Positions 2,733-47,000 of a stretch of 64,000 bases of DNA are shown one piece after another. This DNA comes from Macrostomum lignano (Eukaryota): the NCBI GenBank assembly GCA_002269645.1, contig NIVC01000135.1, positions 293,334 to 357,333 of the forward strand. Direction: 5' to 3'. The notes beneath the pieces were generated by a model, which was not told where the DNA came from, made no database searches, and saw only the letters and a list, made by a program, of their open reading frames with translations. Positions within the stretch are counted from its first letter, which is position 1; each line of letters starts with the position of its first letter. The translations under genes were made by a program, and so were the position numbers.

Positions 2733-3557
2733 CTGAGATGCCAAGGCTGAGAGGGAATTGCTGAAATATCAAGACGTGAGGGGAATTGCTGAGATGTCAA
2801 GACTTACTGGGGGAATTACTGAGATATAAGGGCTTACTGAGATAATTACTGAGATGCCAAGGCTTAAGAGTGAATTGCTGAGATGTCAAGGCTTGGAGGG
2901 AATTTCTGAGGTGTCAAGGCTTGGTGGGAATTGCTGAGATGTTAAGTCTTGGGGGGGAATTCTATGGATTGGGGAATCTTTGAACGAGAGATGCTTCTAA
3001 TGGATATCTCGAGGAGATGAGGGGATTCTTTGGCCAAGAATTCTATTAATGGGCGGATTATTTGGATGGGAGATTCTTTGGATTCCTTGAATGGGGGATT
3101 CTGTTGATTGGGATTATTTGGACGTGAATTTTTTGAACGGGTTTTTTAGATGAAGGTATTCTTTGGCCAGTTATTCTTTTGATGGGAGAATCAATGGATA
3201 ATGTGGATGGAGATTCTGTGGATGGGGATTATTTGGACGTGGATTATTTGCATGGGGATTCTTTGGAGGGAGATTCTTTAGTTAGGAATGGATGGGGGAT
3301 TCTTTGGATATGGATGGGTGGAGGATTCTTTCGATGGGAATTCTGTGAATGAGAGATTCTTTAAATAAAGATTCTTTTGAATGGGATTCTTTGCATGTGA
3401 GATGTTATGAATGGGCAATGCATTGGATGGGAAATTCTTCAGATAGGAGAAGTCCTTGAATGGGAAATTCTTTGGATCCGGGATTCTATTGATAGGGGTT
3501 CTTTGGATGGGGGATTTTTCTATATGGATGGAGGTCGGGGATTTTTTGGATAGGGAT
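2733..3557. repeat. Compound minisatellite: ~20 bp GCTGAGATGTCAAGGCTT units followed by degenerate GGGGATTCTTTGGAT units
   Basis: Both motifs are visibly iterated; the same satellite resumes at 13264-14464 and 25233-25750 on the far sides of the two insertions. Confidence 0.75.
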
Positions 3558-4229
3558 ACTACTAAGGGCCGGCAGATCCGCCCTTTTTGGAGGTGGGGTG
3601 GGTGTCAACCCTCCTCGCCTCTCATTGGCGGGCGCGCGCGCCGCAGGCGCGTGGCGCCAAGCGCCAATTAGGCGCCCATGCCGCAGGCGCACCCTCCCGA
3701 TATGTGCACCCTCCCGAGCCGCAGGCGCACCTACCGACATGTACCGACATGCCCACCCTCCCGATATGTACCCCGATATGTATGCCCACCCTCCCGATAT
3801 GTATGCCGCAGGCGCACCCTCCCTCCAGAGCAGCAGGCGCCCATGCCGCAGGCGCCCCATGCTGCAAGCACCCCGAGTGTACACTCTCCCAAGCCGCAGG
3901 CACCCGAGTGTACACTCTCCCATGCCGCAGGAACCCCGAGTGTACACTCTCCCACTCTCCCCAGTACACTCTCCCGATATGTATGCATACACAGATATCT
4001 AGTCAGCGATATTAGGCTAGTGAAAACTACTTATAGTAGATGAAATTGCGTATATTTACATAAAAAGTAGATAAAACATATTGGTAGGTGTGAATAATGA
4101 CACATAATGCATATTAAAATGTACATATTGGAGCATATGAGCAGCAAAATGCACACAATGTAGGCGCATATTTGACAGAAATAGACAAAGCAGGTACTGT
4201 AGGCGCTACATAGGTGGAAATACACACAG
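3558..4229 (+). repeat. Left terminal inverted repeat of the Polinton-like element
   Basis: Reverse complement of 12598-13263 (e.g. GGGTGTCAACCCTCCTCGCCTCTCATTGGC vs GCCAATGAGAGGCGAGGAGGGTTGACACCC). Imperfect, with internal GC-rich subrepeats (CCCGATATGTA, GAGTGTACACTCTCCC). Confidence 0.88.
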
Positions 4230-4520
4230 TATAATGCAGGTGCGTACACACTGTAGGTGCAAATTGAGTATAATACACTAAAATTATAATACATAGCATA
4301 TAATGTAGGCGCATTTTAAACAATACATTTTTGCATAATAACCCGCAGGTACAAATTTCAGTGCATAGGCTAAAATACACACTCTGCAAATTGAGTATAA
4401 TGCAGGAAAATTGTGACATATACAACATATGTATGCAAATTAAGCATATAATGTAGGTGTAAAGTAAAATACAAGCCACCGGCCCCTAGTAAACAGACAC
4501 GCCCCCAGAGCCAGGGCCGG

Positions 4521-5120
4521 GGGATCCCAAGTACAGTGCGGTCAGAGAGGAGTAACATAGAGAAATTCCTCCCCAAGCCCTAAATAAGGTTTTTTCAAGG
4601 GGATCCCAAGTACAGTGCATGCAGAGACTGCACACAAGCAGAGAACATTGACTATTTTCCTCTTGAAGTTTCATGCAAGGGACCCCTAGTACAGTGCATG
4701 CAGAGAGCTATTTTCCTCCCCAATGGGGGTTATCAAGGACCCCTCACCAAGTACGGTGCGGGCAGAGTAACCGCATACAAATAGGGGTTTTAGCGGATCC
4801 CAAGTACAGTGCGCTCCCGGGTGTCAAATGATGCCCCAATGTACAGTGGAGGTAGAGTAACAGACCGCATACAAAGAGAATTCCAGTCAAACTTTACAGC
4901 AGCTCCCACCCCAAATGAGGGTTTTAGTGGATCCCCAGGGGGTAGCTCTCCAAGTTGAGGGATCCCCCAGTGTGTTGCGAGGCCCAAGTACAGTGCAGGC
5001 AGAGAGTAATAGAGACCGCCCCATGTACTGTGCGCTCCCGGGTGTCAAATGATGAAGGACCCCTAACTACAGTGCGGGCGTAAAACCATTTTCATCCCCA
5101 CGAGTCAAGGGATCCCAAGT
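4521..5120 (+). repeat. Cluster of ~10 irregularly spaced direct repeats (GGGATCCCAAGTACAGTGC core)
   Basis: Copies at ~4521, 4600, 4678, 4746, 4795, 4837, 4983, 5020, 5058 and 5108, separated by variable sequence, between the left TIR and the polB stop codon. Confidence 0.7.
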
Positions 5121-5170
5121 GGGCACATAGGGGAATCCCAGGCGTAAAAAGACAGATCCTTATCTTTCAC

Positions 5171-8100
5171 TCACTCCCGAAAGCCATACGGGCGGCTAGC
5201 GGCCCCATACACCCTCTTAGTCATTACGCGCTGGAAAGTCTTGTCCATCTCCAGGGTCCGGATTGTACAGCTAGCCTTATCGCGCCTGAACTGGGCCTGG
5301 GGCAGGCGTACAGTCCCGCCGTGACGCAGAATTTCCTGCAGCTCGTCCTCGCGCTCGGAAATCTCGGGGGTGACTCTGATGCCCTTGCACTTGAGTACCG
5401 AGTACAGCGACCTGTCGGGCTTCTCCACCACGTACCGGTAGAGCTTGGGGCCTCCCGTGGTGAACTGTACCATGCGGCAGCCAGCAGGTACCTCGTCAGT
5501 CCACTGCCCCAAACTCGAACCGCCCGGAGGCTCGTACTCGCCCGGGGAGCAGCGGTATACGACCCTGGGAGGAGGAGAAGGATAAAAAGTGTTAAGGGGA
5601 GAAAGAGAGACAGAGACAGTGAAAAAATTACTTACGAATCGGTATCGGCGTAAATGACGCGGGTTCCTAGACCCTCCAGAGCCTCGTAGAGTCGCAGCCG
5701 GGCGTGGGAGGTGGTGAAAACGCCAATAGGTACATTAGCGTACTTGAACGCCCGCTCGCCAGCGCCGCCAAATCGGGGCTTGTACTCGAGCATCATGAAG
5801 CTCTCCCCAATTGGCTCGCACGACTTGACCTTGATCGAGGGGTCTGTCAGGCGCTGCAGCCACGCCTCGTAGCTGTCCACAATCTCTGTGGAGGTCAGGT
5901 CGTCGCGCTGGCAGAATTTGCCCCAGAGCCTGCAGGGGAAAAATAAATTTTATGTAAGTAGAAAAACACGGTCCCCACTGCAAGTAGAAAAAACTTACGA
6001 GTTTAGAAAAATCTTGGCCACAAAGCGCAGGCCGGGATTTTCATCCACCTTTTCCAGCCGGACGCCTTCGCGCTCGAAAAAGCTGGCCATGTAGGCAGCC
6101 TTGGCGTCCTCAGCCATCCCCGGCGAACCGCTAGACTCTGCTTTGAGCTTCAAAAAAGTGTTTACATAATCTGCAAACAGGCCCGTGCGAGTCTCGGTCC
6201 AATAGGCCAGGGCATGAACTGACTGCAGCTTGTAACCCAACTGCAGGGCTTTGTGGAGCTCTGGGGTCGACCACGTGCCGCGGAGCATTCTCTCAGCGTC
6301 GGTGTGTGTACACTCGCTGCTGCACTGGGTCTCCATGCAGACGCGGCAGAGGCCGAAAACCAGCTTCTTGCTAATCTTGGCTGGCAGTAGCGGAATGTGG
6401 AGATTGGTTGGCGGCAGAATTGACACCTCGGCGATGCCAAAATACCGGGCCAGCTGCTGCTCATCCAGTAGATGAGGCTCGGGGTGGTGAACCGGGTGCC
6501 CGACAGGGTACTTGTCAAACTTGTTGACAGTCGGGTAGAGCGACACCTAGGGGATAAGAGGATAAGATAAACTCAAACCCATGTCAACTGTGTGTGTGTA
6601 CAAGTGTACAAACTTACCACATCCCGATAGCGCAGCTCTACAGTCTCGGTGGCCTCGGCGTGCGGGACAAAAGCCTCGGTACGGCCGCCAAACAGGGCAT
6701 CCTCCAGGCGAATAGGCTGCTGGACTGGCGCTCCCTCGTCCTGATAGTCGTGCTCCCACAGAACACGCACATTGTATGCAGTGGAGAGCAGCCGGGTGAA
6801 GCGCTCAGTCTCCTCATAAATCGCCCGCATTGGCTGGTTCTTGAGCGGGTGCAGCACGTCGCCGTTGGGGAAGCACTTGGGACAGCCATGGAAGAAGCAG
6901 CCATGAAACTGCAGCACTGTCCTGGTCTCTGGGCCGAAGCCGTCGACCTTACGGCCCATGGCGAAAGCCTCGCCGCCCGAGTCCGCTGTCCGCAACCGGC
7001 CGCCAAACTCGGTTGCATTTAAATGTGCCAGCCAGCACCGCGCCTTGTGCGACTGTACATCCGATCGGCGGGAAATCACCCCAAGAGTGTTGGGCTCCAT
7101 AAACTTGGTGGTGAATACCGACATGGCCAAGCCCGCAATGGTGTTGGATTGAACAAATGCGTCCAGTCCGCAAATGTCCTTAATCAGGCGGGCATATTTC
7201 AGGCAGCCTTCCCGCAAAATTAGCGTGTCCTGCAGGCAATAGTCCAGATACTCCTTATTAAAATTAAACACTTTGCCCTCCTGCTTGGCCAGCCAGTCGG
7301 CGATGGAGTCATGCTGCTTGTTTTTCTTTCCTCCGTACATATCAATTGAGCAGTAGGGACCGACGTACCCCCAGTTTTCCGGCTGGTTAAACACGTGCGG
7401 GAAATCTCCTTTGGTCAGTTGGGTGCCCAAACCAAGCGCCTTTGGGAATTGCGCCAGACCAATAGGGATGAAATTGAGGCTGTCCTTGAAGGTGATCTTG
7501 TCGCACTTCATGTACATTAGGCGGCTGTTCTGGAAGATCACCTGCGGCTTCTTCTTGGCCAGTCCGTTGAGTAGGGCGCCGAGCAGGAGGAATGCGTCAT
7601 ACGCAGAGCCATTGTGCGCAATAGCAATTGCCCCCTGCTTGAACACACTAGTCAGCCAGCAGTAAAAGGCATCGATAGAGTGTGGCCCGACAGATACAAA
7701 CTCTCGCATCCCACAGGCGCAGTCATTGTGCGAGACACAGCTCGTGAAATCGAGTGCCAAATCGCGTCCCGCAATGCAATTGGCTGAGCTGTGTAGTCCC
7801 CCGCACGCGCTGCAGCGGGGCCTGGGGAAGAGTTTGGGACACGCCTCGCAGGAGGTGGCAGCCGTAACCAAGTGTACCCGGTGCTGCTTGCCAGAGTCCA
7901 CGTACGTCTCGAAATCATAGTAAACATACGGGGCGCTAGACTCTTTGGCTTTGGGCGGGGTGACAAAGCACTCGTGGGTGGCAGTTTCGTCGTACTGCTT
8001 GCAGACTGGACACTTGGCGTAACCGCACTGATGCTCAGGGGGCTGGCCTACTTTTAGTTCTTCTAGATAGCCACACGTGCCGCAAACGTGGACCGAATCA

Positions 8101-10139
8101 CAGCGAGATCTGCCCGCCTTATTCTTGCGCTTGTGATTTTCTAGGCACTGAGCATTATAGCAATTTAGCCCGCAATCATGGCATCTTACATATGCGCGGT
8201 TTGCCTTACAGTTGGAGCCCGGAGTCTTGCATGTACTGCAGGCATCAGCGCACTTGTGCTTCTCATAATTGCAATCATAGGCCATCTCGCACTTGGGGCA
8301 GTAGTGATCGGAGCCGAAAAACGCAGGCAGCTTGGTAACCACATTAAAGTGCTGCTCGACCAGGTGCAGGTGCAGAATCTCGGTGCCAGGCAGGTTGAAG
8401 ATGCACCTGTTGGCCTCCTCTGCGCGGTACACGCGTACACCAAAATCGTGCCCGGGACGCAGCCGGTTCAGGGCTCGGATCGCTTCGGGCAGTGCATCCA
8501 CCCCGAAAGGACCGGCCTGCGAGACGGTTTGAAGAGTCTGTGTAGGGGGTAAAATATTTCTTTTAGTATTCCCTGATACTGTGTAAAATTCTTTTAGTAT
8601 TCCATGATACTGCGTAAAAATTCTTATCAGAAAATATATCTTTTAGTATTCCACGATACTGTGTAAAAATTATTATCAGAAAATTTTAGTATTCCTTATC
8701 GTAAAAATTCTTATCGGAAAAATACTAGAAACTTACCGAGTAGAGACCCGCTTCGATTTGTAGCTCAGTCGCAAGCTTAGTCTGGGCGGGCGAATTGGCC
8801 TTGATTGTACGCCACACCTGCATGGTGATGGACTTGGCCACGAATTGCAGGTAGGCGCAGGCCACGACCAGAGCGCGCAGCAGGCATCTCTTGTCCGAGT
8901 TGGTGATGCGGACATAGTGCTTTGAAAAAGCGTGCCTCTCTTCTAGATGCTTGTTCTCGAGAGCACATCCACCTCGAGGCACCCAGGCCTTTAGCAGACG
9001 GACAGAAAAGTTGCCTGACAATACAGTGGCATCCGACTGCACAATCTTGTCAATGTGCTTAAACAACAATTCAGCCGTCATGCGGGCTGCACGCACCGGG
9101 GGAGTATGGGCCGCTTTGAGCATATTGTCGCTCTCGAATTTCGCGGCCATAAAGTCATCACCAGCCAAATCTTGCTTGAAAACTTCGAGCATGTCGGCAA
9201 ACACCTCCCGCAAATCTTCGGTGTTGGTAATACGCACCACATACTCGACACCCTTTGCCCTAAACTTGGGCAGGTCACGCTGATTATCCAGCCGGGCCGT
9301 AAAACCTGCATGGGTGGAATGGGGGAGTGTGAGTCAGCCCGGTTCTGTGTGGGAAATGGGGGGTGGGATAACTCACCCGGTCCGGTAACAGATTCCGGCT
9401 GTGTTGGCGGGACAAACGCGTCTGAAAAAACACAAGGAGATAAAAAACCAGAAGAATCTGTCATTTTCCTGGCCCCAGCGTGTTTCCCCGCCCTAGCCCA
9501 GCAATTTCTTAACAGAGTTTACTCTGCTGTCCCCGCAGCAACTCTCTGCAATTTCTTATCTGCACCCCCGCTGCAGCCTGTCGCAGCAGTCTTTGTTTAC
9601 TCACCCCTGCAACTCTCTGTCGCAGCAATTTGCACCTAGCTGCAGCCTGTCTGGGTAGCGCCCTATCTGCAGCCCCAGTCTGTCCCAGCAACTCTCTGCC
9701 CCCACCTGGCTGAACTTGTCTAGCCTGCCCCAACGATTCTGCAGCAATTTCTTATCTGACGCAGCACCCTAGCAACTGTCTGTTTTTGCAGCAATTTCTT
9801 ATCAGCACACCCCTCCTTGTCTAGACAACACCCCCCTAGCAGCAATTTCTTATCAGCACACACCCGGCTGAAACTTGTCTAGCCCTCCCCTGCAACTCTC
9901 TGTTACAGACCCTGCCGCAGCACCCCACCCTAGCAACTCCAGTCTAGACCCCTGCAGCTGTCGCAGCAGTCTTTGTTGTTTACTCTGCGGTCCCACAGAC
10001 CCTGCAGCTGCTGCTGCTGCTCAGCCCCTACCCCCACCCTAGCAACTACAGTCTAGACAGAAATTAATTAAAACTTACCATAAAGACGTTGCCTCTTGTC
10101 AGCCAGGAAAGCAGTTGCGGTGGCGCTGCGTTTAGCCAT
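5171..10139 (-). CDS. polB: Protein-primed family B DNA polymerase (Polinton type), 6 exons, ~1261 aa
   Basis: Minus-strand exons 10139-10079, 9305-8737, 8537-6618, 6546-5999, 5929-5636 and 5564-5171, joined by GTAAGT...AG introns, give one open frame (3786 nt). Motifs: ExoI YYDFET, ExoII AHNGSAYD, ExoIII YCLQD, motif A DV|VSLYP, motif B KIFLNS|LWGKF, motif C YADTDS|, GPKLY, KCKGI. It also has an N-terminal OTU-like Cys (SDKRCLLRAL) and His (EQHFNVV), a Cys-rich region, and a VSR-like insert (KVDGF...QFHGCFFHGCPKC). Confidence 0.92.
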
Positions 10140-10210
10140 TTTGCAAACAGAGAGTGTGAGAGAGCGAGCGGAGAGAAGGATTATCTCTCTACCCTGGCTC
10201 TGGGGGTCTG

Positions 10211-10333
10211 TATATATACTAAAAAATCTGCTCAGCTCGCCTGTTATTGGATAAATCGCCAAAAACCAACCAAAATCATCAAAAATCACCCCCAAAATCA
10301 CCACCCACCCCACCTCCATCCGGGGTATATAAG
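10211..10333. promoter_or_regulatory. Divergent Pol II promoter region between polB and the PC4-like ORF
   Basis: TATATATA at 10211-10218 with a minus-strand CCAAT at ~10247-10251 upstream of the polB ATG (10139); TATATAAG at 10326-10333 upstream of the ATG at 10385. Confidence 0.5.
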
Positions 10334-10384
10334 GCGCTGCACGGCTGTCAGAGAGCTCTCTGCTGCTGCCGCTGCTGCTAAATC

Positions 10385-10918
10385 ATGTCTTCTATCTCTC
10401 TATACGAAAACTTTGTGGCGCGGAAGCCCACATTTGAAACTGAACACAACTTGATTGAAATTCGGCGTCTCTACACCAACGAGGCTGGAGTGTGGAAGGA
10501 CGGCTTCCCTGCAATCTACTTGAGCGAGCCAGAGTGGAAGAAGCTCGAAGCTGCGCGCCCTGACCTGGAGGCTGCTGCCCGCCTTCACGTGAACAAGCGG
10601 GTCCTGTTGGGCAATTTCAAGGCAGTTGAAGCTTCGCGAGGGAGGATCCGTTTGCTGCGCAATTGGCTCAATCGGGACCCAAAGTTTAATTGGCGCTACA
10701 CGATCGAATTCACGCCTGAACTGTGGCGCAGGCTGTTTGCCGCCCGTTTGGACAAGCTCTTCAAGCCGGCACCTGAGGCACCCCCTCCAGCCAAGCGAGT
10801 CAAGACAGACACGCCTCCGGTAGCCGGGACTGAGGTGGATGTTCTTCAGCTCATGGGTCTCAAACCCTACCAATCTCCGCCCTGGGAAAATCTGTTTAAC
10901 GAGGGTTGGGACTGCTAG
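10385..10918 (+). CDS. Tandem PC4-like ssDNA-binding protein, 177 aa
   Basis: LIEIRRLY...GFPAIYLSEPEWKKL resembles the PC4 core (LIDIREYY...KGISLTPEQWxxL), with a second degenerate copy IRLLRNW...YTIEFTPELWRRL and a C-terminal NLS-like PPAKRVK. Assigned by eye only. Confidence 0.6.
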   Translation: MSSISLYENFVARKPTFETEHNLIEIRRLYTNEAGVWKDGFPAIYLSEPEWKKLEAARPDLEAAARLHVNKRVLLGNFKAVEASRGRIRLLRNWLNRDPKFNWRYTIEFTPELWRRLFAARLDKLFKPAPEAPPPAKRVKTDTPPVAGTEVDVLQLMGLKPYQSPPWENLFNEGWDC

Positions 10919-11034
10919 TTTCCTATTGGTTCGCACCGCCTCACTCGATCCGTCTATATAATTAGTGTTTCCCCCCTCTCCAGAGAGTCAAACCCTATCT
11001 CAGCTCTAATACTTTACTCTCTGTTGATTCTAGC

Positions 11035-12049
11035 ATGTCCCGCCGAGCTCTATCCAACCTCTGGGATAATAATCGCCCGACTGAAGAGTTAACCAGCCTC
11101 GACGGGGATATCCCTGAACACATAGTTCCCCTAGGCACTGAAAACAACGGAAGTGATAATTGGGAGGCTGATCAATATCTAGCTTGGGCTATGTCCTATG
11201 ATAGCGACACCGAGTCTGAAGTTTTTGACCTCCCGCTGCTGGCTATCGGCGGGGTTGTGAACGGTGCCCCTGCTGCTACTGCCTCCGATTTGACTACCGC
11301 CTCAGCCGCCCTCTTTGACGTCTCTGTTGAGGAGCTGACCACAACCGGCCCTGCCTCTGCTGCGCCCGTCTCTGCTGCTGCCGCCTCTACTACGCCCGTC
11401 TCTGCTGCTGCTTCAACTACCTCCCACCGGGCCTCAATATCATCAGCCGCTACGCTCCTTCTCTTCGACGACGAGGACGAGGATATGTCTGAGGAGATCG
11501 CCGTGGTTCGTGAGCGCTTTCCTCGCATTGTGGCCTCATTTTTCCGCGGGGACATTGACTGGCTGAGGTCTCGGCATCCTGGCGGGCTGCCCTCCCAAGC
11601 TACCTTTGTCAGAGCCTTTAATCGGGTTCTTGATACTTTGGTTGCGAGGGGTGCCGGCCTACGGGAGGTGTTGGAGGCTGAGACTCTGCACCAGGACTGG
11701 TTGATGGGGCGCAATTCGTATGCCCCCGACTCTGAGGCGTACCTGGCCGGTCCGGGAGCGCGGCCAACTGCGTGGGATGAGCCCGTCGCATGGCCCTCCA
11801 ACTGGGAGGAGCACCTTTCGTTGGTGCGCTATACAGCGTCTCTACGTCTGTGGCGGCTGGAGGACGATTTAGATTTGGTAAGATATTACATTATATACAC
11901 AACTCATCTAATCATATACCTTGCATATATTCTATCTACATTGACTGTTATAATTTCCACATTGCCAGTCATCCGACTACTGCTTCGAGAGCGTGGAGGA
12001 AGAGGCCGCGTACGAGACAGCCCTGAGGGAGCGTATGGAGATTGACTGA
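11035..12049 (+). CDS. Unknown acidic protein, probably 2 exons (11035-11877, 11969-12049; ~307 aa)
   Basis: Long ATG-initiated ORF preceded by TATATAA (10955-10961). An AT-rich segment 11878-11968 bounded by GTAAGA...CCAG splices in frame to give SSDYCFESVEEEAAYETALRERMEID-stop. The unspliced ORF ends at 12045. Confidence 0.6.
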
Positions 12050-12597
12050 TAAGGGTATTTCTCTTTGTACGCGGTTTGGGGAACCCAACACTGTACACTG
12101 GGTAGGTTAGAATGGGCGCTAGCTGGGGGCCTCTATGTGTGTATACACGGGGGTTAAAAGACCAATTCTGATAGCTCGCTCCTAGGGAGGAAATTGGCAG
12201 AGGGGCCGGCCCAAAAACTGAAATGGGCTGGCCCCGGGCTCGAGTCCACCCACCTAAAATATGGAGGGTCATTACAACCTAATGACTCGAAATACTTTCA
12301 ACGCAATTGTACCTATAAGAGGGTTAGGGCGGCGGTGGTGGCGAAAACGGGCGGCTAAAACCTCCCTTTTGGGATTTCCCCGAACCGCTTTTGTTTAATA
12401 TTTATGCACCTGCGGGTTAGACAATATTTACTATTTAGTCGGTGTGACATTATTTACGCGTCTGTTGCACCTGGGCGTTTGCCTATAATCTGATTATACA
12501 TGCGTGCCTGTATTATACAACTACACCTTATGCATGCCTTGTAAACCTGCTTTATACATTAATCCGATATGTATCGAAAGTACACTTTGTAAACCTG

Positions 12598-13263
12598 CTG
12601 TGTGTATTTCCACCTATGTAGCGCCTACAGTACCTGCTTTGTCTATTTCTGCCCATACACCTACATTGTGTGTTTTTGCTGCTCATATGCTCCAATATGT
12701 ACATTTTAATATGCAATATGCGTCATTATTCACCTACCAATATGTTTTATCTACATTTTTATGTAAATATACTCAATTTCACCTACTATAAGTAGTTTTC
12801 ACTAGCCTAATATCGTTGACTGCATATCGTACATATCGGGAGATTGGTAGAGTGTACACTCGGGGTGCCTGCGGCATGGGAGAGTGTACACTCGGGTGCC
12901 TGCAGCTTGGGAGAGTGTACACTCGGGGTGCTTGCAGCATGGGGCGCCTGCGGCATGGACGCCTGCTGCTCTGGAGGGAGGGTATACATATCGGGAGGGT
13001 GGGCATACATATCGGGGTACATGTCGGGAGGGTGGGCATGTCGGTAGGTGCGCCTGCGGCTGGGGAGGGTCGCCGGTGGCTCGGGAGGGTCGCCTGCGGC
13101 TGGACGGCGCTTGGCGCCACGCGCCTGCGGCGCGCGCGCGCCGAGCGCCGATATCGATACGGGTATCGATCACCTAGTGATCGGGGCGCCAGCCAATGAG
13201 AGGCGAGGAGGGTTGACACCCACCCCACCTCCAAAATCAACACATCTGCCAGTCCTTAGTAGT
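12598..13263 (-). repeat. Right terminal inverted repeat of the Polinton-like element
   Basis: Reverse complement of 3558-4229; ends CCTTAGTAGT followed by the TSD AGGGAT. Confidence 0.88.
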
Positions 13264-14464
13264 AGGGATGGATAGGGGGATTCTTTGGATCGGGGATTCT
13301 ATCGATGGGGGTTCTTTGGATAGGGATTCTCTGCATGTAAGATTCTATGGATGGGCAATTCTTCAGATAGGAGAATTCCTTGAATGGGGAATTCTTGGGA
13401 TCGGTGATTCTATCGATGGGAGGTTTTTTCGATGGCGGCTTCTTTGCATGTGAGATTCTTTGTATCGTGGATTTTATGGGTGGTGTATTCTTTGGATGGG
13501 GATTCTTTGTATGGGAGATTCAGTTGGGTGAAATTTTATTGCGTAGGAAAACTGTGGCTGGAGTTTGGACGGAAAGCCCCAACGGGAGTGTGAATTGGCT
13601 AGCTAAGGAAATTGCTTCACTAATCTTGCTGGGGGTACTTTCTATCAGGGGATGCTTGCTATCGGAAGGACGCTTGCTCTTGGGGGATGCTTGCTCGGAA
13701 GAGAATTTTAAGATGTCAAGATTTACAAGGGGAATTATTGAGATACATGTATAAAATCTTACCTTGGGGAATTAATGACATGTGAAGGCTTAAGAGGGAC
13801 TTGCTGAGATGTCAAGGCTTGTGGGGGAATCGCTGAGATGTCAAGGCTTGTGGAGGGAATTGCTGAGGTGTGAAGGCTTAAAAAGGAATTGCTGAGGTCT
13901 TAAGTCTCGGGGAGGGGAATCGCTAAGATGCCAAGGCTTTGGACGGGGAGAAATTGCTGAGATGCCAACACTTACTGGAGGAATTACTGAGATATCAAGG
14001 CTTACTGGGAGAATTACTGAGATATCAAGGCTTGGGGAGGGGAATTACTGAGATGTCAAGGCTTTGGACGGGGAGAAATTGGTATCATGTCAAGGCTTGC
14101 GCCGGAATTGCTTAGATGTCAATGCTTAGGGAAAATTTCTGAGGTGTCGAGGCTTGGGGAAATTGCTGAGATGTTAAGTCTTGGGGGAATTCTATGGATT
14201 GATGATTCTTTGGATGAGGGATGCTTCTAATGGATAAATTTTTGGGCAATTTCTTCGGTGGGGCATTGTTTCGATGGAGGGTTTTTTGAATGGGGGGTTC
14301 TTTAGATAAATGATTCTTTAGATGGGGGGTTATTTGAACGGGGGTTCTTTAGATGAGGGGATTCTGGATTCTTTGGCCAATTATTCTTTTGATGGGGGAT
14401 TATTTAAGGATGTGAATTCTTAGAGGGGGGATTTTTCAGAGAAGGAATTTTTTGGATATGGATG
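13264..14464. repeat. Continuation of the GGATTC / GCTGAGATGTCAAGGCTT compound satellite
   Basis: Same motifs as 2733-3557; lies between the Polinton-like element and the Gypsy element. Confidence 0.75.
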
Positions 14465-18650: not shown

Positions 18651-20135
18651 TTAGAATGTCACTGGCTGGCCGTAGCGATCCGGCGGCCGTCGCAACCTTC
18701 CGGACCTTCGAGGCTCAGGTGCAGCTTCCACCGGGTTATGAGTAGGCTGCGGGTCGTCAACCAACTCCATCTGCTCTTCCAGCACCTCGGCGACTTCCTC
18801 GGCGTCCTGTGGCGGCATCAGTTGAGGCCGAGTCCAAGTCTCGCATTCCGCATCTGTCTCCGAGTCCGTCTCGTCGACCACCTCCGGCGGTGCCGCGGTC
18901 CTAACTGGTGTTTCCAGGGCGGCCGGTCGAGCGAACTTCCGGAGGTTGTTGAAGTGGACGAACTTCGACTTTTTACGATTTGACGGGTTTTCCACTTTGA
19001 AGAGCACCTCGGATCTTCTTTCGAGCACCTTCACTGGGCCGAGCCAGCTTACGTGAAACTTTGCGGCTTCGTCTGGTTTCAGGGCGGGGCTGTAGACGAA
19101 GACATGGTCACCCTCCTGAATATCGGATCCTCGGGTTCTTTTATCGTACTGGTCCTTCTGTCGCCGCTGATAAGTATTCAACTGCTGTCGAGCAGCGCGA
19201 TGAGCTGTCTGCAATTTGTCTTCTAGCTCCTTGACGAAATTTACATGCGAATCGACAGGCTGTGGCGGCTGGTCAGTCAAGTCTATCGGTAGGCGCATCT
19301 CCGTGCCATAGACCATGTAGTGGGGAGTATAACCCGTTGCTCGATGCACGCTTGATCGGTACGCCATTAACGCAGAGCTGACGAATTCTTCCCAGTCGTT
19401 TCGTCCTGAGTCCTCTAGGCAGCACTTGAGGATGGATTTTAAACTTTTATTGAAGTTTTCTACTTGTCCATTTCCGCTCGGATGATAAGCTGTTGTTCTG
19501 GACTTGCGGATCTCGAGTATCCTGCACATTTCGCGCATCACTTGCGATTCGAAGTTCCTTCCTTGGTCACTGTGCAAAGTACTCGGACATCCATGCTGGC
19601 TAATCCATCGATTGAAAAGCGCCCTTGCCACCGTCCTTGCCTTCTGGTTGCGAAGCGGGTACGCGTCAGGCCACTTCGTAAACGAATCTTGGACTGTCAG
19701 GAGATAAATGTTTCCAGCCTTACTCCGCGGTAGCGGCCCGACAATGTCCATCATGACGCAATCGAATGGTGCTGCGAATGTCAACGGTTGCAGGGGTGCT
19801 CGGTTTCGCTTGCCCGGCTTTGACTTGCAGCAGGTGGCACAACCGCGAATATATTCTTCAATGGCACGAGACAATCCTGGACGCCAGTAGCGCTGAAGCA
19901 CTTTAAATTTTGTCTTCGCAAAGCCCATGTGGCCACCTCCCACTCCCTCGTGTAGGGTTTTCAAGATACGATCCAATGCCTTTCGTGGCAGCACCATTTG
20001 ATACTCATCGCGCCTGTCTTTGTTTCTCACAAGGAGCACTTTCTCTTGCAGCACCAGGTCGTCTTTTCGAGTCCAGACGGCTCTAGCCAGTGGACTCCAA
20101 GCTGTCTCGCTTTTATCTGGACTGGGTTTGAGCCA
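18651..20135 (-). CDS. pol: Integrase part of Gypsy pol (separated from RT/RH by an apparent 1 nt frameshift near 20135)
   Basis: HHCC zinc finger (HEGVGGGH...CATC), catalytic MDIVGP, HSDQGRNFES and NGQVENFN, C-terminal RRSGRLRRPPDRY. The frame is open upstream to ~20135 (KPSPDKSETAWSPLARAVWTRKDDLV). Confidence 0.9.
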   Translation of the reverse strand, partial: WLKPSPDKSETAWSPLARAVWTRKDDLVLQEKVLLVRNKDRRDEYQMVLPRKALDRILKTLHEGVGGGHMGFAKTKFKVLQRYWRPGLSRAIEEYIRGCATCCKSKPGKRNRAPLQPLTFAAPFDCVMMDIVGPLPRSKAGNIYLLTVQDSFTKWPDAYPLRNQKARTVARALFNRWISQHGCPSTLHSDQGRNFESQVMREMCRILEIRKSRTTAYHPSGNGQVENFNKSLKSILKCCLEDSGRNDWEEFVSSALMAYRSSVHRATGYTPHYMVYGTEMRLPIDLTDQPPQPVDSHVNFVKELEDKLQTAHRAARQQLNTYQRRQKDQYDKRTRGSDIQEGDHVFVYSPALKPDEAAKFHVSWLGPVKVLERRSEVLFKVENPSNRKKSKFVHFNNLRKFARPAALETPVRTAAPPEVVDETDSETDAECETWTRPQLMPPQDAEEVAEVLEEQMELVDDPQPTHNPVEAAPEPRRSGRLRRPPDRYGQPVTF

Positions 20136-23100
20136 AGCGCTTCCTTTACTGTTCTCAAATCGTCGTCTTGATCCTGCTCGCTTGCCAGATTGCCGGCTGA
20201 GAATCGTTCAAATTCGACTGCATTTAGTCCTTCTGGATGCTGCGCACATGCCGGGCATGTCTCCGCTCCGAAATGTCTCCGTACTGGCTTCCTCGACATT
20301 GCGTCCGCGTTGCCATGCGATCGACCTGGTCTGTGAACGATGCGGTACTGAAATGGAGCCAACTTCTCCAACCAGCGAGCAACCTGTCCCTCGGCGTCAC
20401 TGAAGTTTTTTAACCATTGCAGGCTGCTGTGGTCCGTTCGCAGACAGAACGCTTTTCCCAGCAGATAGTATCTGAACTTCATGATGAAAGTCACAACCGC
20501 TAGTAGTTCTAAACGAGTCGTACAATAGTTGCGTTCGGCTTGATTTAGTGTCTTGGACCCATAGGCGATCACTCGTTCTGCTCCATCTGGCTGGACTTGA
20601 GAAAGTACCGCTCCTATGCCCATCTTCGAACTGCCATCAGTATCGAGGATAAACTCTCCGGCATCCGGGGAGAAATCCGGATGAGCCATAACCTCTGAAC
20701 TTGTCATTCGTTCCTTCAATGTTTCGAACGCCAGCTGCTGTTCCGTTTTCCATTCAAACTTTGCGTCTTTTGTTGTCAACCGAGTTAGAGGCGCTGCTAT
20801 TGCGGCGAAATCTTTAATAAACTTTCTGTAATAGCCACACAGGCCCAAGAATGAATGCGGCTCCGTCGAGGATCGCGGTGTTGGCCAGTTCTTCACTTCT
20901 TGAACTTTCTCCTCATCGGTACTGATGCCAGCAGCCGACAGCGTGTGACCGAGAAATTTTACTTGCTTTTGCAAAAAGTGACACTTCTGGGGCTTCAGGC
21001 ACAAATTTGCTTGCCGCAACTTGCTGAATATTTCCTCCAGTCTTCTCAGGTGTTCATCCACGTCGGTTGACCAAACCAGTAGATCGTCGATGTAGACGAG
21101 ACAGGTTTTCCACATCTGCTTGTCCAAAACGGCTGCCATCAACCTGGTGAATGTTGCTGGGCTGTTCACTAAGCCGAACGGCATAACCTTCCATCGAAAT
21201 TGTCCGCGATGCGGCACTGCAAACGCCGTCTTGTCCTGATCCTGAGGTCTCACCCCTACTTGCCAAAACCCGCTGTGAAGGTCCATTGTCGAGAAGATCT
21301 TGGCACCGTGTACTGCCTCCAGCGCATCATCGACCCTCGGCATCGGCACTGCATCCTTGACGGTGACCTCATTCAACTTCCGATAATCGACGCACATCCT
21401 CATTTCCCCTGATTTCTTCTTTACGCACACCAAAGGAAAGCACCATGGTGACTGTGCTTCTTCGATCTGCCCCTTTTCCAGCAACTCGTTGACTTGACGA
21501 TCTACTTCTGGCTGTAAGTGGGGAGGCAGACGACGCGGTGGGATCTTGATTGGGCGCGCATTCTCGGTGTTAATTTCATGCTCCACCACGGTAGTTAACT
21601 TGCTTGCAGTCTGCTTGGTCGTGAACACATCGCCGTAACTCCGGACAAGGATTCTAAATTCTTCGTCTTCTTTCGTCGACAGTCCACAGTCGCCGTACGA
21701 GTTTGGTAGCAAGTCTGCTTCCGAAGGGCTGTTGCTGCCTTGGAACTTCGGCTCTTCCTGTGGATCGTCTCCTGACTCTACGGCTAAGAGCTTGATGGTG
21801 TTCAACGGTTCGGTGGATTCTAGGGGGCAGAACCACCCGAGCGTACAACCTTGGCGAATTCTGACTGGCTCCTCCGTGATATTGATGAGTCGAGTCGGCA
21901 GACGGCTGCCGCTATTTGGGATCACTAAGGCCTTAGCAAGCCAGCGGCCAGCTGCCAAATCGTTCGCCCCGAGATTCTCAGTTAGACCGACACACCCTCT
22001 GTTCCGTCGTCCTTTGCTCTCCAGCCTTGCTGACAGAACTGCTTGATGACCTGGCGGTATTGTGCTGGACCTTGTCGCCAAAATTCTGCAAACGATCGGG
22101 CGCTCAGCTTGCCATCGGAACGGGATTGCAGTGTCCTGCACTGAAAAGACAGCTGTCTTGTAGTCGATGACGCAACTGTTGTCCCTGCAGAAGTCGGATC
22201 CCAATACCAGTTGGTACTTCACTCCGCTGACTACCAAGGCTGGAGTATCTATTACTTTATCAGCGATTGACAGTCGCAACAGGACTGTTCTCTCGATTTC
22301 GATCGGGCTGCCGTTTGCTAAGCTAACATAGCCTTCAGCACCGGCCAAATCTCTGACGCTCTGTTTCGGCATACTTTGGTAAGCTTCCCGTGAGATAATG
22401 GTGCAGGAAGCTCCCGAGTCCACTAGCGCGTTCACCCTCCGCCCTGCGATTGAGGCCGTAACATATATCGACGCAGGATTGATTTGAATTGACTGAGGTG
22501 CGTTGACGGTGATTGGGCGCTGCGACTGTGCAAAACCGGCTAGTTGATGGTGAGGTGCAGTACCGGACGCTGGAGGCTGATGAGACGCAGTACCGGACAC
22601 TGGAGGCTGATGAGACGCAGTACCGGACACTGGAGGCTGATGAGACGCAGTACCGGACACTGGAGGCTGATGAGACACAGTACCGGACACTGGATGCTGA
22701 TGAGGCGCAGTACCGGACACTGGATGCTGATGAGACGCAGTACCGGACACTGGATGCTGATGAGACGCAGTACCGGACACTGGATGCTGATGAGATACTG
22801 TACCGGACACTGGAGGCTGATGAGACGCAGTACCGGACACTGGATGCTGATGAGACGCAGTACCGGACACTGGATGCTGATGAGATACTGTACCGGACAC
22901 TGGATGCTGATGAGATACTGTACCGGACACTGGAGGCTGATGAGACGCAGTACCGGACACTGGATGCTGATGAGACGCAGTACCGGACACTGGAGGCTGA
23001 TGAGACGCAGTACCGGACACTGGATGCTGATGAGGCGCAGTACCGGACACTGGATTCTGATGAGGCGCAGTACCGGACACTGGAGGCTGATGAGATGCGG

Positions 23101-23206
23101 TACCGGGCGTTTGATGATGATGAGATGAGATGACGGCTTGTTCGGAGGCTGACGAATTGCAGGGGCTCACTTGCCTCCAGCTGGTGGGCCCCTCTTGCCT
23201 TTTCCC
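20136..23206 (-). CDS. pol: Gypsy pol: repeat linker, aspartic protease, reverse transcriptase, RNase H
   Basis: LVDSGAS (PR), VDYRKLN / MPFGL / YIDDLL (RT), TDGS / ELLAV / TDHSSL (RH). It lies in the -1 frame relative to gag, with candidate slippery heptamer GGGAAAA at minus-strand 23206-23200. Confidence 0.93.
22553..23110. repeat. 30 bp tandem repeat (~18 copies) inside the pol frame
   Basis: Unit GCAGTACCGGACACTGGA(G/T)GCTGATGAGAC; encodes (S/P)HQ(P/H)PVSGT(A/V) decapeptides between the gag stop and the protease. Confidence 0.95.
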
Positions 23207-24099
23207 GGCTTTGGGCACTGGAATGAGAGATGGCCTATCTCCCCGCAGTTGTAGCACTTGACACCGCTACGCTGCTTCGAGCTGGACGGAGCCGCCTGCT
23301 TGGATTGTTGCTTGTCTTGAAGGCCGGGTTCGGGCGGCTCCTGCTGGCCCTGCTGCATCTGCTCCATCCGTCGGATCTTTTCTTCCATTTCCTTTACTTT
23401 TTGACGCAGTTGGCGTAGCTCCTCGTCTTTGCCGGTGTCACCTGTCGACGTTTCGGTGGCAAAGGCATTCAGCCCAGCCCTGGGTCTGGCTTTGGACTGG
23501 GTCGAAGACGCCTTCTGGGCTGCTTCAAGTTGTCTTACTGTTCGAATGGCATCGGTGAGGTTGGCCGGCTGCTGCAGGTACAGTCTTTCTCGGACAGTGT
23601 CGGTTACTCGAACGCCTTTTAGAAATCTGTCTTTCGCCAGCTCTGTCCTGGTGTCGGCATCCGCGGTGGGGAAGGCATTGCGCACCAACTCCAGCAGCTC
23701 GTCCCCGTAGGTCTCCACAGACTCCTTGTCTAGCTGATCTCGATTCGATAATTCAAAACGGTAGTCCTGGGCTGTTCTGTTCATGGTGAACCGCGCCAGC
23801 AGTGCATCCGTGAATTCCCCGTACTCGATGTCGTCTGCCAAGTCCAGCTTATCAACGGCAGCGTAGGCTGTTGTGAGGACAAGTAGGCCGATCAGGTGCG
23901 GCCGCCTGGCTTCTTCTTCTATACCGACAGCCTCGCAGTACTCGTTGAAACTCTGCAGCCATAGGCTGAAATTCATCGTTGGTATGTACTTGGGCGGCTT
24001 CGAGAGTCGTGGCGCTGCTCGGTCGGCGTTGGCTCTGAGGCGCGCAGCCAGCGCATCGATCAGTTGGTCCATAGCTTGATCACCCATGGCCGAAGTCAC
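23167..24099 (-). CDS. gag: Gypsy Gag, 310 aa
   Basis: ATG 213 nt downstream of the PBS, capsid-like helical region, coiled coil, CCHC knuckle CYNCGEIGHLSFQC. Confidence 0.92.
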   Translation of the reverse strand: MTSAMGDQAMDQLIDALAARLRANADRAAPRLSKPPKYIPTMNFSLWLQSFNEYCEAVGIEEEARRPHLIGLLVLTTAYAAVDKLDLADDIEYGEFTDALLARFTMNRTAQDYRFELSNRDQLDKESVETYGDELLELVRNAFPTADADTRTELAKDRFLKGVRVTDTVRERLYLQQPANLTDAIRTVRQLEAAQKASSTQSKARPRAGLNAFATETSTGDTGKDEELRQLRQKVKEMEEKIRRMEQMQQGQQEPPEPGLQDKQQSKQAAPSSSKQRSGVKCYNCGEIGHLSFQCPKPGKGKRGPPAGGK

Positions 24100-24311
24100 T
24101 GAATACCGTTGCTACTCTTTACTCTGAGGTGGTGATAGCTATCGATCTCTGATAACCAATCAGTTGTCTGTCACCGTGATCAATGTCTTTTGCGGTAGGG
24201 CAATAGCCGCAAGCGATAAGCAACAGTCGTTTTAATAAGAAAAAACGCTCACAATATGACAGCAATTTTCATAGAAAGCAACTGAGCCGACTTTCAATCT
24301 TTGGGGACAGG

Positions 24312-44069: not shown

Positions 44070-47000
44070 ATGCCAAAACGTGGTCGTGGAAGCCTTTCCC
44101 GCTCTACACGCGCTGCATCGAATGCCAAGAGGCGCAGGGCGTCCGAGACACCTGATGAGCGGGCAGCGCGCGTTGAGCGGGAGCGGCAGCATAAGGCCGA
44201 GAGCCGCGAGGGTGAGGGCGATGTGGAGCGCCAGCATCGCCTTGAGTCAAACCGACTGCGTGCAGCCGGATGCCGCGAGGTTGAAGACGAAGTTGAGCGC
44301 CAGCATCGCCTTGAGTCAAATCGACTGCGTGCAGCCGAAAGCCGTGATGATGAAGACGAGGCGGAGCGCCAGCGTCGACTCGACCACGACCGGCTGCGTT
44401 CTGCCGAAGGTCGGCAAGCCGAAGACGAGGCCGTCCATCAGCATCGTCTGGAGGCGCAGCGGCAGCGCCAGAGCAAGAATCGTGCGGTTGAGTCCGCGGT
44501 AGACCACGACCGCCGACTACATGCACAGGCAGAGAGGCGCCGAGACAGGTAGGGGTTGTTATATATTTTATTCTGCTATCCTTATGCTCAGCTGCTCATT
44601 CTTTAGGATTATTATACTAACTGCATGTACGTCTGCTCTTTATTTCATTGCCACAGACTGTTGGAGCTGGCACACCAGCCACATGTGCTCGGTCGCATGG
44701 ACCGCCAATGCCTTCACTGCAGCGCGCTACGCTGGAAGGACGAGCCAGCTAGCATTTGCTGCCATGCAGGAAAGGTGAGTTAAAATTTTCAACATTAGTT
44801 TATTTAAATTGCTGCCTCATTGATGCTTTTTTATACCGATCATTACTTTATAAAATCAATATTGTACAAAGCCTCTGACCATCAATAGATTCAAAGACAA
44901 TTGCGTGATTTGCTGCAGCCCGTTTCAACATAAAGCTACTTGAGTCTTTTTTCATTTCCCTGACAGACCGTCCTGGAGCAGCGCCGAGACCCGCCTGATG
45001 TTCTGAAGCGACTGCTGACTGGCGAGCATCCGTTCAGCCCGCAGTTCCTGAAGGACATCAGGAAGTACAACGGCGCGCTCCACATGACCTCGCTTGGTTC
45101 CAGGCAGCGTGAGCAGCCCGGGTGGAACCCGAGCTTCATCCTCCATGGTCAGATGCACCATCGCATTGGCAGCCTGTTGCCAGACCCGGGGGATGCGGCC
45201 AGGTTCTGCCAGGTCTTCTTTGTGGACCAAGAGCTGCAGAACAGACTGCAATGGACGGCTGGTCTCAACGACACTTTGCTGCGGGAGCTGCAAGCTGTTC
45301 TGCATGACTGCAACAGCTACGTGCGCAGCCTCAAGTCCGCAGTCGACTTGCTGCGCAGCGACCCGCAATTGCAGAGCGCCAGGGTCGTCATCAACCCCGA
45401 TGCCCGCCCATCTGGGGAGCATGTCCGACGCTTCAACTTGCCCGAGTGCAGTGAGGTCGGCATCCTGACGGACCTTGGCGATGCTGATGGCGTAGTTCAG
45501 GCGCAATGGCGGAGCGTGGTTTTGCGTCTGAGAGGTGGTGGTAAGTACTTTAAGCGCCTTAAAAGACTTAAAATTTGGGTTGCATTGCAAAGTCAGATAA
45601 TAGACACATTCTCGGCTATTCAAGTGTACATTTTTCTTGCATTTGAACTGCATTCACAGGCCTCCAGGAGATCTCTGAGACCCATCGCTCCTACGATCCG
45701 TTGGAGTACGTGCTGCTGCTTCCGTACGGCGAGGACGGCTGGCACATTGGGCTCAAGAAGGATCGAGGCATCACCATGATGAAGTACTACGCCTACTTGA
45801 TCCAGGTGCGACCAGGCCAGTTCAACAGCCTGCTGTACGGTCGCCGGCTCTTCCAGCAGTACCTGGTGGACCAGGCTGCCAAGATCGAGTCGGAGCGACT
45901 TACGTACATCCGGCAGCACCAAACGGATCTGGTGTCTGAAAGTCTTCGGGGTCTCCGAGACGCGCTGCACGAGGACGACGGCAGGCCGGAGGAAGTCGGG
46001 AAGCGTGTCATTCTTACTTCCAGCTACGTGGGAGGTCCACGGTACCGTCTGGAGCGTCAGCAGGATGCCATGGCGTATGTTCACGCCTTTGGCCGCCCAG
46101 ACCTGTTTCTGACGATGACATGCAACCCGAAGTGGCCGGAAATTCTGGCCGAGCTGCTTCCGGGCCAGACTGCCGTCGATCGGCCGGACATCACCGCCCG
46201 GGTGTTCGAGCTGAAGAAGAAGGCCTTCTTAAACAGGCTGAAGAGTCTGTTTGGAGATACTCTGGCTCGAGTCTGCTCGCTGGAGTACCAGAAGCGAGGC
46301 AAGTGTACTTTTTAGCTTTAAACTGTAGCATTAACTGTTGGCTCCATAACTTCGTAAATTTCAATAAAATTATTGATTATCAATTATCAATAAATTTTAT
46401 CCACAACCAGGTCTTCCCCACGTGCACGCGCTGCTGTGGCTGGCGAACAAGCTGAAGCCGGATCAGTACGACGCCGTCATCAGCGCGGAGATCCCGGACC
46501 CTGTCGCCGACGCCGACCTGCATCAGCTGGTGGCGGAGAACATGCTGCACGGTCCCTGTGGACAGCAGCTCAATTCTGCCGCGGCGTGCATGGAGAAAGG
46601 CAGGTGCAGCAAGCGCTACCCGAGGGAGTTCCTGGCCGCCACGAAGGTCGAGGAGGATGGCTACCCGCATTACTGCCGCAGATCCGTCGAGATGGGCGGC
46701 TTCACGGTGACGAAGCTCGCAAAGCTGCGCGGCGGTCAGAGGGTGATGTTCACCTTTGACAACCGCTGGGTGGTGCCGTACTGCCCAGCGCTGCTGCGCG
46801 AGTTTCGCTGTCACCTGAATGTCGAGATCTGCGCGACAGTTCGGGCCATCAAGTACGTGGTGAAGTACATCACCAAGGGTAGCGACATGGCAGCATACCA
46901 GATCCGCAAGGAGTCGGCGGCTGCTGCGAATGCCAGCGCTGATTCGGCCACTGAAGGACCACTGGCGATCGCCGGTCCGTCCACGTCGACTGGGACTGCT

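Follow-up and report, generated by a model that had tools for sequence, protein, structure and literature searches.

Polintons or Mavericks (adintoviruses), as described in PMC10748475, PMC8097293 and PMC8502044, have a DNA polymerase of the protein-primed family B type (pPolB), which in the Vsr-type pPolB2 group carries a Vsr-like insertion, long terminal inverted repeats (TIRs) and a 6-bp target site duplication (TSD). The intact vertebrate Mavericks reported in PMC8097293 are intron-free. Here, we analyse a 64,000-nt stretch of the Macrostomum lignano genome (assembly GCA_002269645.1, contig NIVC01000135.1, positions 293,334 to 357,333; hereafter the window), which contains an element of 9,706 bp on the reverse strand (3558..13263). 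The element is like the Polintons in its pPolB with a Vsr-like domain, its long TIRs and its 6-bp TSD, and its partner element likewise has an rve integrase, capsid homologues, an ATPase and a protease. However, while Polintons are described as intron-free in PMC8097293, the polymerase gene of this element, polB, has six introns, three of them in the catalytic motifs A, B and C, and the genes are spread over two separately inserted elements.

Several described systems resemble one or the other of these features. The chlorovirus DNA polymerase gene is likewise a viral family B gene with a conserved short nuclear-type intron, but there is only one intron, the virus is a giant virus and the enzyme is RNA-primed (PMC7019647). 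Inteins of family B polymerases are found at three fixed active-site positions, of which pol-c is YGD|TDS (PMC549080). The introns described here are also three insertions in three active-site motifs; unlike the inteins, they are spliced from RNA, non-coding, without an endonuclease and offset by a few bases. Spliceosomal homing introns of mirusviruses are GT-AG introns in core viral genes with links to VSR-like nucleases, but according to PMC12768974 the nuclease is inside the intron and morphogenesis genes are favoured. In collaborative homing (F-CphI and the S-PM2 psbA intron) and in the intein/intron exclusivity seen at PRP8, an intron occupies the target of a nuclease (PMC6083498, PMC3749507), which is the principle proposed below for polB. 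These systems differ in that they involve a group I intron in phage, or a host gene, and cleavage, which for polB is a proposal, is demonstrated for F-CphI. Homing nucleases fused to replication genes, as well as group I introns, are reported from Polinton-like viruses (PMC12220804), and introner-derived introns from dinoflagellate Polinton-like elements (10.1101/2025.03.18.643946).

Bidnaviruses and Vesanto virus also combine a pPolB with several segments that have common termini; however, they are parvovirus-like or single-stranded DNA viruses, and PMC8502044 and PMC8363768 do not describe integration. In contrast, the element and its partner both integrate with 6-bp TSDs and were seen as integrated copies only, and the capsid is of the Polinton type. 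Autonomous replication modules have been proposed (10.64898/2026.10.13.758929). A literature search, outside whose scope lie Repbase, most subscription papers and supplementary element tables, gave no description of Polinton polymerases with spliceosomal introns centred on the motifs, nor of a Polinton in two segments.

Repeated intron gain within a few bases of catalytic codons would be a rare handle on how introns originate and become fixed. Polinton genes are described and searched for as intron-free, and with such gains surveys based on open reading frames (ORFs) would count living elements as broken. Replication and capsid/integrase modules that are separate but matched in their termini would offer a concrete route to module swapping, which has been reported for these viruses (10.64898/2026.10.13.758929), and a two-part Polinton also a route toward segmented pPolB viruses.

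Introns in the catalytic motifs of the polymerase

The spliced polB gene has seven exons and 1,276 codons, all on the reverse strand. Its product is a pPolB (PF03175), and the database entries most similar to it bear the label Macrostomum lignano. A first-pass annotation, made from the letters of the window alone, had placed three introns in motifs A, B and C, and their coordinates, lengths and phases all proved exact. Intron 4 (intron A; 6547..6617, 71 nt, phase 0) divides motif A as DV|VSLYP. Intron 5 (intron B; 5930..5998, 69 nt, phase 2) and intron 6 (intron C; 5565..5635, 71 nt, phase 2) both split a serine codon as TC|G, in KIFLNSLWGK of motif B and in YADTDS of motif C, respectively. 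All three read GTAAGT...YAG and have a GC content of 0.36-0.41, compared with ~0.56 in the exons. The hallmarks of U2 introns, i.e., GT-AG ends, donor consensus and a pyrimidine tract, are present. If intron B or C is retained the frame reads TCG TAA, the immediate stop that had been claimed, and if intron A is retained a stop follows 14 codons in.

Exon 4 (6618..8537; PF03175, E 1.5e-17) contains the exonuclease region, the Vsr-like domain and the start of motif A. It was said to be uninterrupted, and no splice joint was found anywhere in its 1,920 nt (640 codons). Exon 5 (5999..6546, 548 nt; PF03175, E 2.9e-13) extends from motif A to motif B, exon 6 (5636..5929, 294 nt) from motif B to motif C, and exon 7 (5171..5564) to the stop codon in the spliced frame.

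Splicing of the polymerase transcript

Splicing was assessed from assembled contigs only. The runs were guessed by type to be RNA, none being recorded as RNA, and the contigs are 1-2% different from the window, i.e., they stand for the family and not provably for this copy. Contigs that skip introns A and B are found in 4/4 runs from 4 studies, and contigs that skip intron C in 2/4 runs among the contig pieces listed; the junctions are spliced as predicted. In a second set of runs, the A and B joints are present in X8 but in none of the three intron-carrying, DNA-like runs X15, X17 and X19, and intron C is read through in a contig of X15. The joined form is therefore not an intronless DNA copy. 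Spliced forms predominate in the long contigs of three studies, and unspliced contigs are present in runs X1 and X8. An active polymerase requires host splicing, as had been proposed.

The same contigs add three introns upstream of exon 4, so that the earlier count holds for the motif introns but is not complete. Exon 1 (10079..10139, 61 nt, with a presumed start ATG) is followed by intron 1 (9422..10078, 657 nt, phase 1), exon 2 (9377..9421, 45 nt), intron 2 (9306..9376, 71 nt, phase 1), exon 3 (8737..9305, 569 nt) and intron 3 (8538..8736, 199 nt, phase 0). The joint of intron 1 is seen in 2/4 runs and that of intron 2 in 4/4; intron 3 has a spliced joint as well.

Copies, subfamilies and selection

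The polymerase is under purifying selection and its introns are conserved across two old subfamilies, A and B. A genome search with exon 5 gave at least 127 matches, including at least 45 full-length at 94-100% identity and at least 26 near full-length at 67-71%. All three motif introns are present in 30/30 of the best copies, with GT and AG intact in 89/90 introns, and their lengths range over 65-121 nt for A, 67-83 nt for B and 67-75 nt for C. In exon 5 of these copies the proportion of synonymous differences (pS) is 0.083, compared with 0.007 for nonsynonymous ones (pN). Between subfamilies B and A, exon 4 has a synonymous divergence (dS) of 2.3 and a nonsynonymous divergence (dN) of 0.30. 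In the 12 copies of subfamily B examined, the positions and phases of the three motif introns are the same as in subfamily A; a single donor is damaged and a single large insertion is present among them. The positions of introns 2 and 3 are also common to subfamily B (6/6 copies listed). The introns are mutually unrelated in sequence, as z does not exceed 2.1 in any of 21 pairs.

In 8/12 of the subfamily B copies intron A has a length of 81 or 87 nt, and several have an open frame of 867-873 amino acids. Retention of intron A in those copies would therefore give no stop, since the frame stays open. These 867-amino-acid frames had raised the possibility of a subfamily B without intron A, which was rejected, as the intron is present and in frame. 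One subfamily B copy has a 2.2-kb insertion within its motif C intron (L038:6930-9160), with two ORFs and no Pfam match.

Polymerases without motif introns exist in the same genome, namely L041, a decayed relative at 35-45%, and those of four families of canonical Polintons, whose polymerase frames are long and open. P0160, which among outside sequences is closest in the tree described below, is uninterrupted through all three motifs. The metagenomic ORFs P0041, P0042 and P0242 (60-71% identity) start and stop precisely at the borders of exons 5 and 6, and because these borders match, the same three introns are likely to be present in close relatives elsewhere.

Intron position and recurrence in distant polymerases

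The placement of the introns in polB is non-random. When conservation was profiled over 71 full-length homologues, with three smoothing windows, the motif introns were found to be located in the top 0.2-6.6% of codons by conservation, depending on the window. The three upstream introns are in the bottom 3-13%, in the variable N-terminal part. The first-pass annotation had suggested a permutation test of position against conservation; counting all six introns, it gives p = 0.0005-0.0016 for the best three, and Fisher's test over all six gives p = 0.005-0.012.

The introns also apparently recur in distant polymerases, judging from where predicted proteins end. Among the 150 best pPolB cluster representatives, 140 remained after removal of 10 Macrostomum-like rows. 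Early ends were found in 54/140 rows. Motifs A, B and C, which together make up 22 positions, contain 11/54 of these ends, compared with an expectation of 2.0 (p 4e-6). With two sister pairs merged and two doubtful rows dropped, the count is 7/52 (p 0.003). The tails of the early-ending ORFs resemble read-through of a donor (C-K-stop, V-S, R-Y, C-M-stop and W-stop). The inferred ends in motif A are after the first or second base of the third codon, or in the serine. Those in motif B are before the second leucine, in the serine (AG|GT and TC|GT), and in or after the tryptophan.

A FastTree phylogeny of the region upstream of motif A (144/150 rows, 6 being dropped with <200 aligned columns) places the early-ending ORFs in 8 separate places besides the clade of the window; its nodes are often weak, and it shows this scatter, not the order of events. 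One 90% cluster contains a full-length form alongside three forms that end in motif A. The early-end offsets, as deduced from protein ends, differ by a few bases, which would imply repeated independent gains.

Four distant pPolB ORFs (P0096, P0168, P0198 and P0216) end, with donor-like tails, in the Vsr-like FxGCxxHG motif, which is a possible fourth intron hot spot. In a decayed metagenomic pPolB (L159:2290-2915), an insertion of ~620 bp is located right at motif C; it is accompanied by a direct repeat of 5 bp and is not a GT-AG intron.

A probable partner element with integrase and capsid

The gene content of 3558-13263 is polB, a PC4-like ORF and one orphan gene. No match to an integrase, capsid, ATPase or protease was found within it, and an integrase is also absent from 3 other full copies. 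Among the features that define Polintons/Mavericks, the element has the protein-primed family B polymerase (PF03175), the TIRs and the 6-bp TSD; it does not have its own integrase, its own capsid, ATPase and protease, or intron-free core genes. Its ends read ACTACTA...TAGTAGT, its imperfect TIRs are ~670 bp each (3558..4229 and 12598..13263), and the TSD AGGGAT is found at 3552..3557 and 13264..13269 of the forward strand. The end motif, (ACT)2//(AGT)2, is reversed relative to the common form, (AGT)2//(ACT)2; the canonical Polintons in the same genome have the common form.

A search with the end pattern gave 71 matches and revealed a second type of element. Among 15 uncharacterised sites that were fetched, 10 encode homologues of integrase, capsid and ATPase but lack a polymerase, and the other 5 are non-coding. 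The partner elements are ~10 kb long (8-14 kb) and contain a Fic-domain gene, an rve integrase (PF00665), capsid homologues, a protease and an ATPase. They are on C150, C807, C1711, C2210 and C5237 (L183-L192) and on C384, C296, C175, C522 and C49 (L205-L214). Of 62 partner matches 40 were scored, 28 at >=95% and 12 at ~80%. None of the 40 partner capsid matches is within 45 kb of an exon 5 match, and the capsid has no sequence match in the PDB.

The partner shares only the outermost ~30 nt with the polymerase element. The same four 20-nt end variants are found on subfamily A polymerase and capsid elements, and subfamily B has its own common end, ACTACGTA, on 7 polymerase elements and 5 partner elements, at both ends and with matching TSDs. 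One of 6 subfamily B partner loci is without detectable ends, and the screen for polymerases in this subfamily was a tblastn with the exons of the window only. Partner TSDs match in 4/5 subfamily A and 5/5 subfamily B copies that have both ends. Complementary segments with matching termini, as in a segmented virus, are thus present in both subfamilies.

The most parsimonious reading is that the element is likely one of two complementary parts of a Polinton, namely the part with the polymerase, that the two parts integrate separately, and that this layout predates the split between subfamilies A and B. The two parts would depend on each other. Together, they have the defining Polinton features listed above, apart from the intron-free core genes, and they differ in the end motif. 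Within the aligned parts, the partner integrase, capsid, ATPase and protease ORFs have at most 31 gap columns relative to their canonical homologues. Because these core ORFs have no intron-sized break where aligned, introns have not simply accumulated in a nuclear element.

The two ends of one copy often differ in their 20-nt variant (window 3558-3590 compared with 13230-13263), identical variants are found on polymerase, partner and non-coding elements, and one partner end (L184) bears ~45 nt of the TIR of the polymerase segment. The mixed end variants and the L184 end suggest an exchange of ends during replication. Six non-coding elements of 8-9 kb (L071, L072 and L075-L078; G000 C176, C2536, C303, C93, C56 and C3682) are nearly whole-length palindromes with ends as in the polymerase element and 6-bp TSDs; they are likely parasites of the two-part system. 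Ends apparently in common with a canonical Polinton on contig C106 were rejected, as that Polinton is nested inside a non-coding derivative.

Nuclease-like domains

A putative Vsr/EDxHD-like nuclease domain is located within the polymerase (6717..7061, reverse strand), as indicated by a structural model (pLDDT 88.7) and by fold matches. The top Foldseek rows are Vsr (1vsr/1cw0), then I-Bth0305I (3r3p), with E 0.004-0.05, and the Z scores are 8.9 to Vsr, 6.9 to I-Bth0305I and 9.4 to a mitoribosomal chain. The D, G, C and H columns are kept, while Q is found at the usual E column, as in 27/144 rows. A Vsr-like domain is described in related pPolBs in PMC10748475.

An Endonuclease VII domain is found in the intronless pPolBs of two co-resident Polintons (L052:3958-7155 and L061:1785-6062), and the element on C2285 encodes a dUTPase and a deoxynucleoside kinase in addition. 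Group I introns (RF00028, 66 bits) are present in two canonical Polintons of this genome (L059:5346-5649 and L068:5050-5353; 2 matches in 14 loci). No Rfam match was obtained in the family copy L084 or in the partner loci.

Origin of the motif introns

We tentatively favour an origin in which the motif introns were gained and fixed as a shield against sequence-specific nucleases predicted to target the motifs. In integrated copies, the host spliceosome would make the polB mRNA, the polymerase would copy both segments and the non-coding derivatives via their common ends, and the partner would provide integrase and capsid. Homing-type nucleases would target DNA that encodes invariant residues, so that the target could not mutate away. 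If a break were repaired with a short spliceable insert, the protein would be restored and the site destroyed, which would select for such introns only at the motifs. Separate gains in several lineages would leave offsets a few bases apart, and after a gain, precise loss alone would be viable. The non-random position, the early ORF ends in distant pPolBs, the Vsr-like domain, the other nuclease domains and the group I introns in co-resident Polintons, the unrelatedness of the introns and the absence of intron-sized breaks from the aligned partner ORFs all count in favour of a shield. An intron can block a free-standing homing endonuclease (PMC6083498), PRP8 provides a case of a spliceosomal intron located at the codon of an intein (PMC3749507), and conserved sites are not where spliceosomal introns normally lie (PMC2814812).

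A number of observations weigh against this explanation. One gene would require three separate nuclease specificities, and half of the six introns lie at variable sites, for which a different cause is required. The match of the Vsr-like fold is modest (Foldseek E > 0.001, the best Z being to the mitoribosomal chain, which is not a nuclease), and the domain is near-universal in these polymerases (D in 140/144, H in 137/144), most of which have no motif introns. The recurrence is deduced from protein ends, and a W-stop end could also be produced by a 2-nt slip in a G run. Four scans for the underlying DNA came up empty. Viral scans with exon 5 and with three single proteins gave no DNA of distant intron-bearing relatives. 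Alignment scans recovered 54 loci from metagenomes, 5 from viruses and 1 from a bacterial collection, all of them lacking a motif intron. Of the 12 loci from donor-pattern scans, one encodes a phage-like polymerase that has no intron, and the remaining 11 do not match a polymerase. A motif intron was found in 0/59 fetched relative loci, of which 42 could be read without a break through motif A, 41 through motif B and 40 through motif C. Since early ends recur and yet these loci are without introns, motif introns would be a recurring minority state.

The first-pass annotation had offered two origins of its own, and both can be compared with other candidates. One was that introns are kept where precise loss is hardest: gain would be random, introns at variable sites would be lost by imprecise deletion, and those in motifs only by rare exact loss. 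This would explain the persistence of all three motif introns in 30/30 copies without any nuclease, and for inteins and group I introns the same reasoning is well established; however, according to PMC2814812, spliceosomal introns, unlike these, show no such preference for conserved sites. Moreover, the sites of lowest conservation have kept three introns, the two that were checked also in subfamily B, relatives are mostly intron-free, which would require many gains and losses, and the lineage-specific offsets stay unexplained, so that we regard this origin as possible in principle but rather unlikely. The other was that introns took over the sites of homing elements by conversion or replacement. 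In a wider form, each intron is the remnant of a homing element that once held an endonuclease, either a spliceosomal homing intron or an intein or group I intron replaced in place, and shrank to ~70 nt. Homing elements do favour conserved sites, differing offsets suit separate invasions, group I introns are present in other Polintons of the genome, and shintrons exist, some with VSR-like nucleases (PMC12768974). The proximity to intein sites that had been noted is borne out, as the pol-c point YGD|TDS has intron C 8 nt downstream. Intron A is 3 nt before, and intron B 2 nt after, the positions that we take to be pol-a and pol-b. Nevertheless, no nuclease ORF is present in any motif intron examined (65-121 nt in the 30 copies and 69-93 nt in others), the 2.2-kb insertion matches nothing in Pfam, and no Rfam match was obtained in the family copy. 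Conversion from inteins is not supported by the alignment of 150 pPolB rows, in which no insertion of >=40 amino acids is found in motifs A, B or C, and the inserts themselves, ~70 nt and non-coding, are not inteins. An origin as remnants is, in our judgement, unlikely.

Position could also reflect the local sequence without any selection, if motif codons offer proto-splice or cryptic splice sequences. All three sites are G|G, each junction has a G after it and can slide by 1-3 nt, W-G-K can spell a donor, and several of the inferred foreign introns are in or beside the W codon of motif B. However, such short sequences occur throughout the intronless 640-codon exon, and TC|G is rare in intronless relatives (3/41 for B, 2/40 for C); we therefore find sequence bias or chance improbable. 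The idea that retention in some tissues would disable the polymerase, by analogy with the P-element intron, agrees with the stop that follows on retention of B or C and with the unspliced contigs in X1 and X8, although these contigs may be pre-mRNA or DNA. A stop-bearing intron at any position would serve as such a switch, and intron A preserves the frame in many subfamily B copies, so that a regulatory switch seems very improbable as the reason for the motif position. Transfer from host family B polymerase genes, by recombination at the common motifs, could exploit the only stretches that are similar, but Pol delta, alpha and zeta are uninterrupted through motifs A, B and C in 6/6 loci (2 per gene, with Pol epsilon outside the sample), and we give it hardly any credence. 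An introner origin was rejected, as searches with introns A and B gave 44 candidates, of which 40 were scored, and every scored one adjoins exon 5 of an element copy (intron C was not searched).

The shield is favoured because the remaining cause must act on DNA that codes for invariant residues, as homing-type nucleases do. It can be speculated further that Polintons wage war on each other through homing-type nucleases directed at the codons of the polymerase active site, that introns are recurrent shields across animal Polintons, and that the element is one half of a long-standing two-segment Polinton; this wider picture we consider possible but doubtful.

Other features of the element and the window

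The two remaining genes of the element are on the forward strand. The PC4-like ORF (10385..10918, 177 amino acids) matches PF02229 at E 0.02, which is under the curated cut-off, and has a weak 31% match to the PC4-like ORF of the canonical Polinton C393; from this similarity, its product likely binds single-stranded DNA. The orphan gene (11035..12045) has one spliced intron of 91 nt (11878-11968), whose joint is seen in 3/4 runs, and no Pfam match above cut-off.

Outside the element, a Ty3/Gypsy-type retrotransposon with gag, protease, reverse transcriptase, RNase H and integrase is found on the reverse strand at 18651-24111, and a fragmented Helitron on the forward strand at 44952-49742. A short TTAGGG-type run is present at 770-810, and long stretches of 28000-64000 have a strong G and A skew and are probably tandem repeats.

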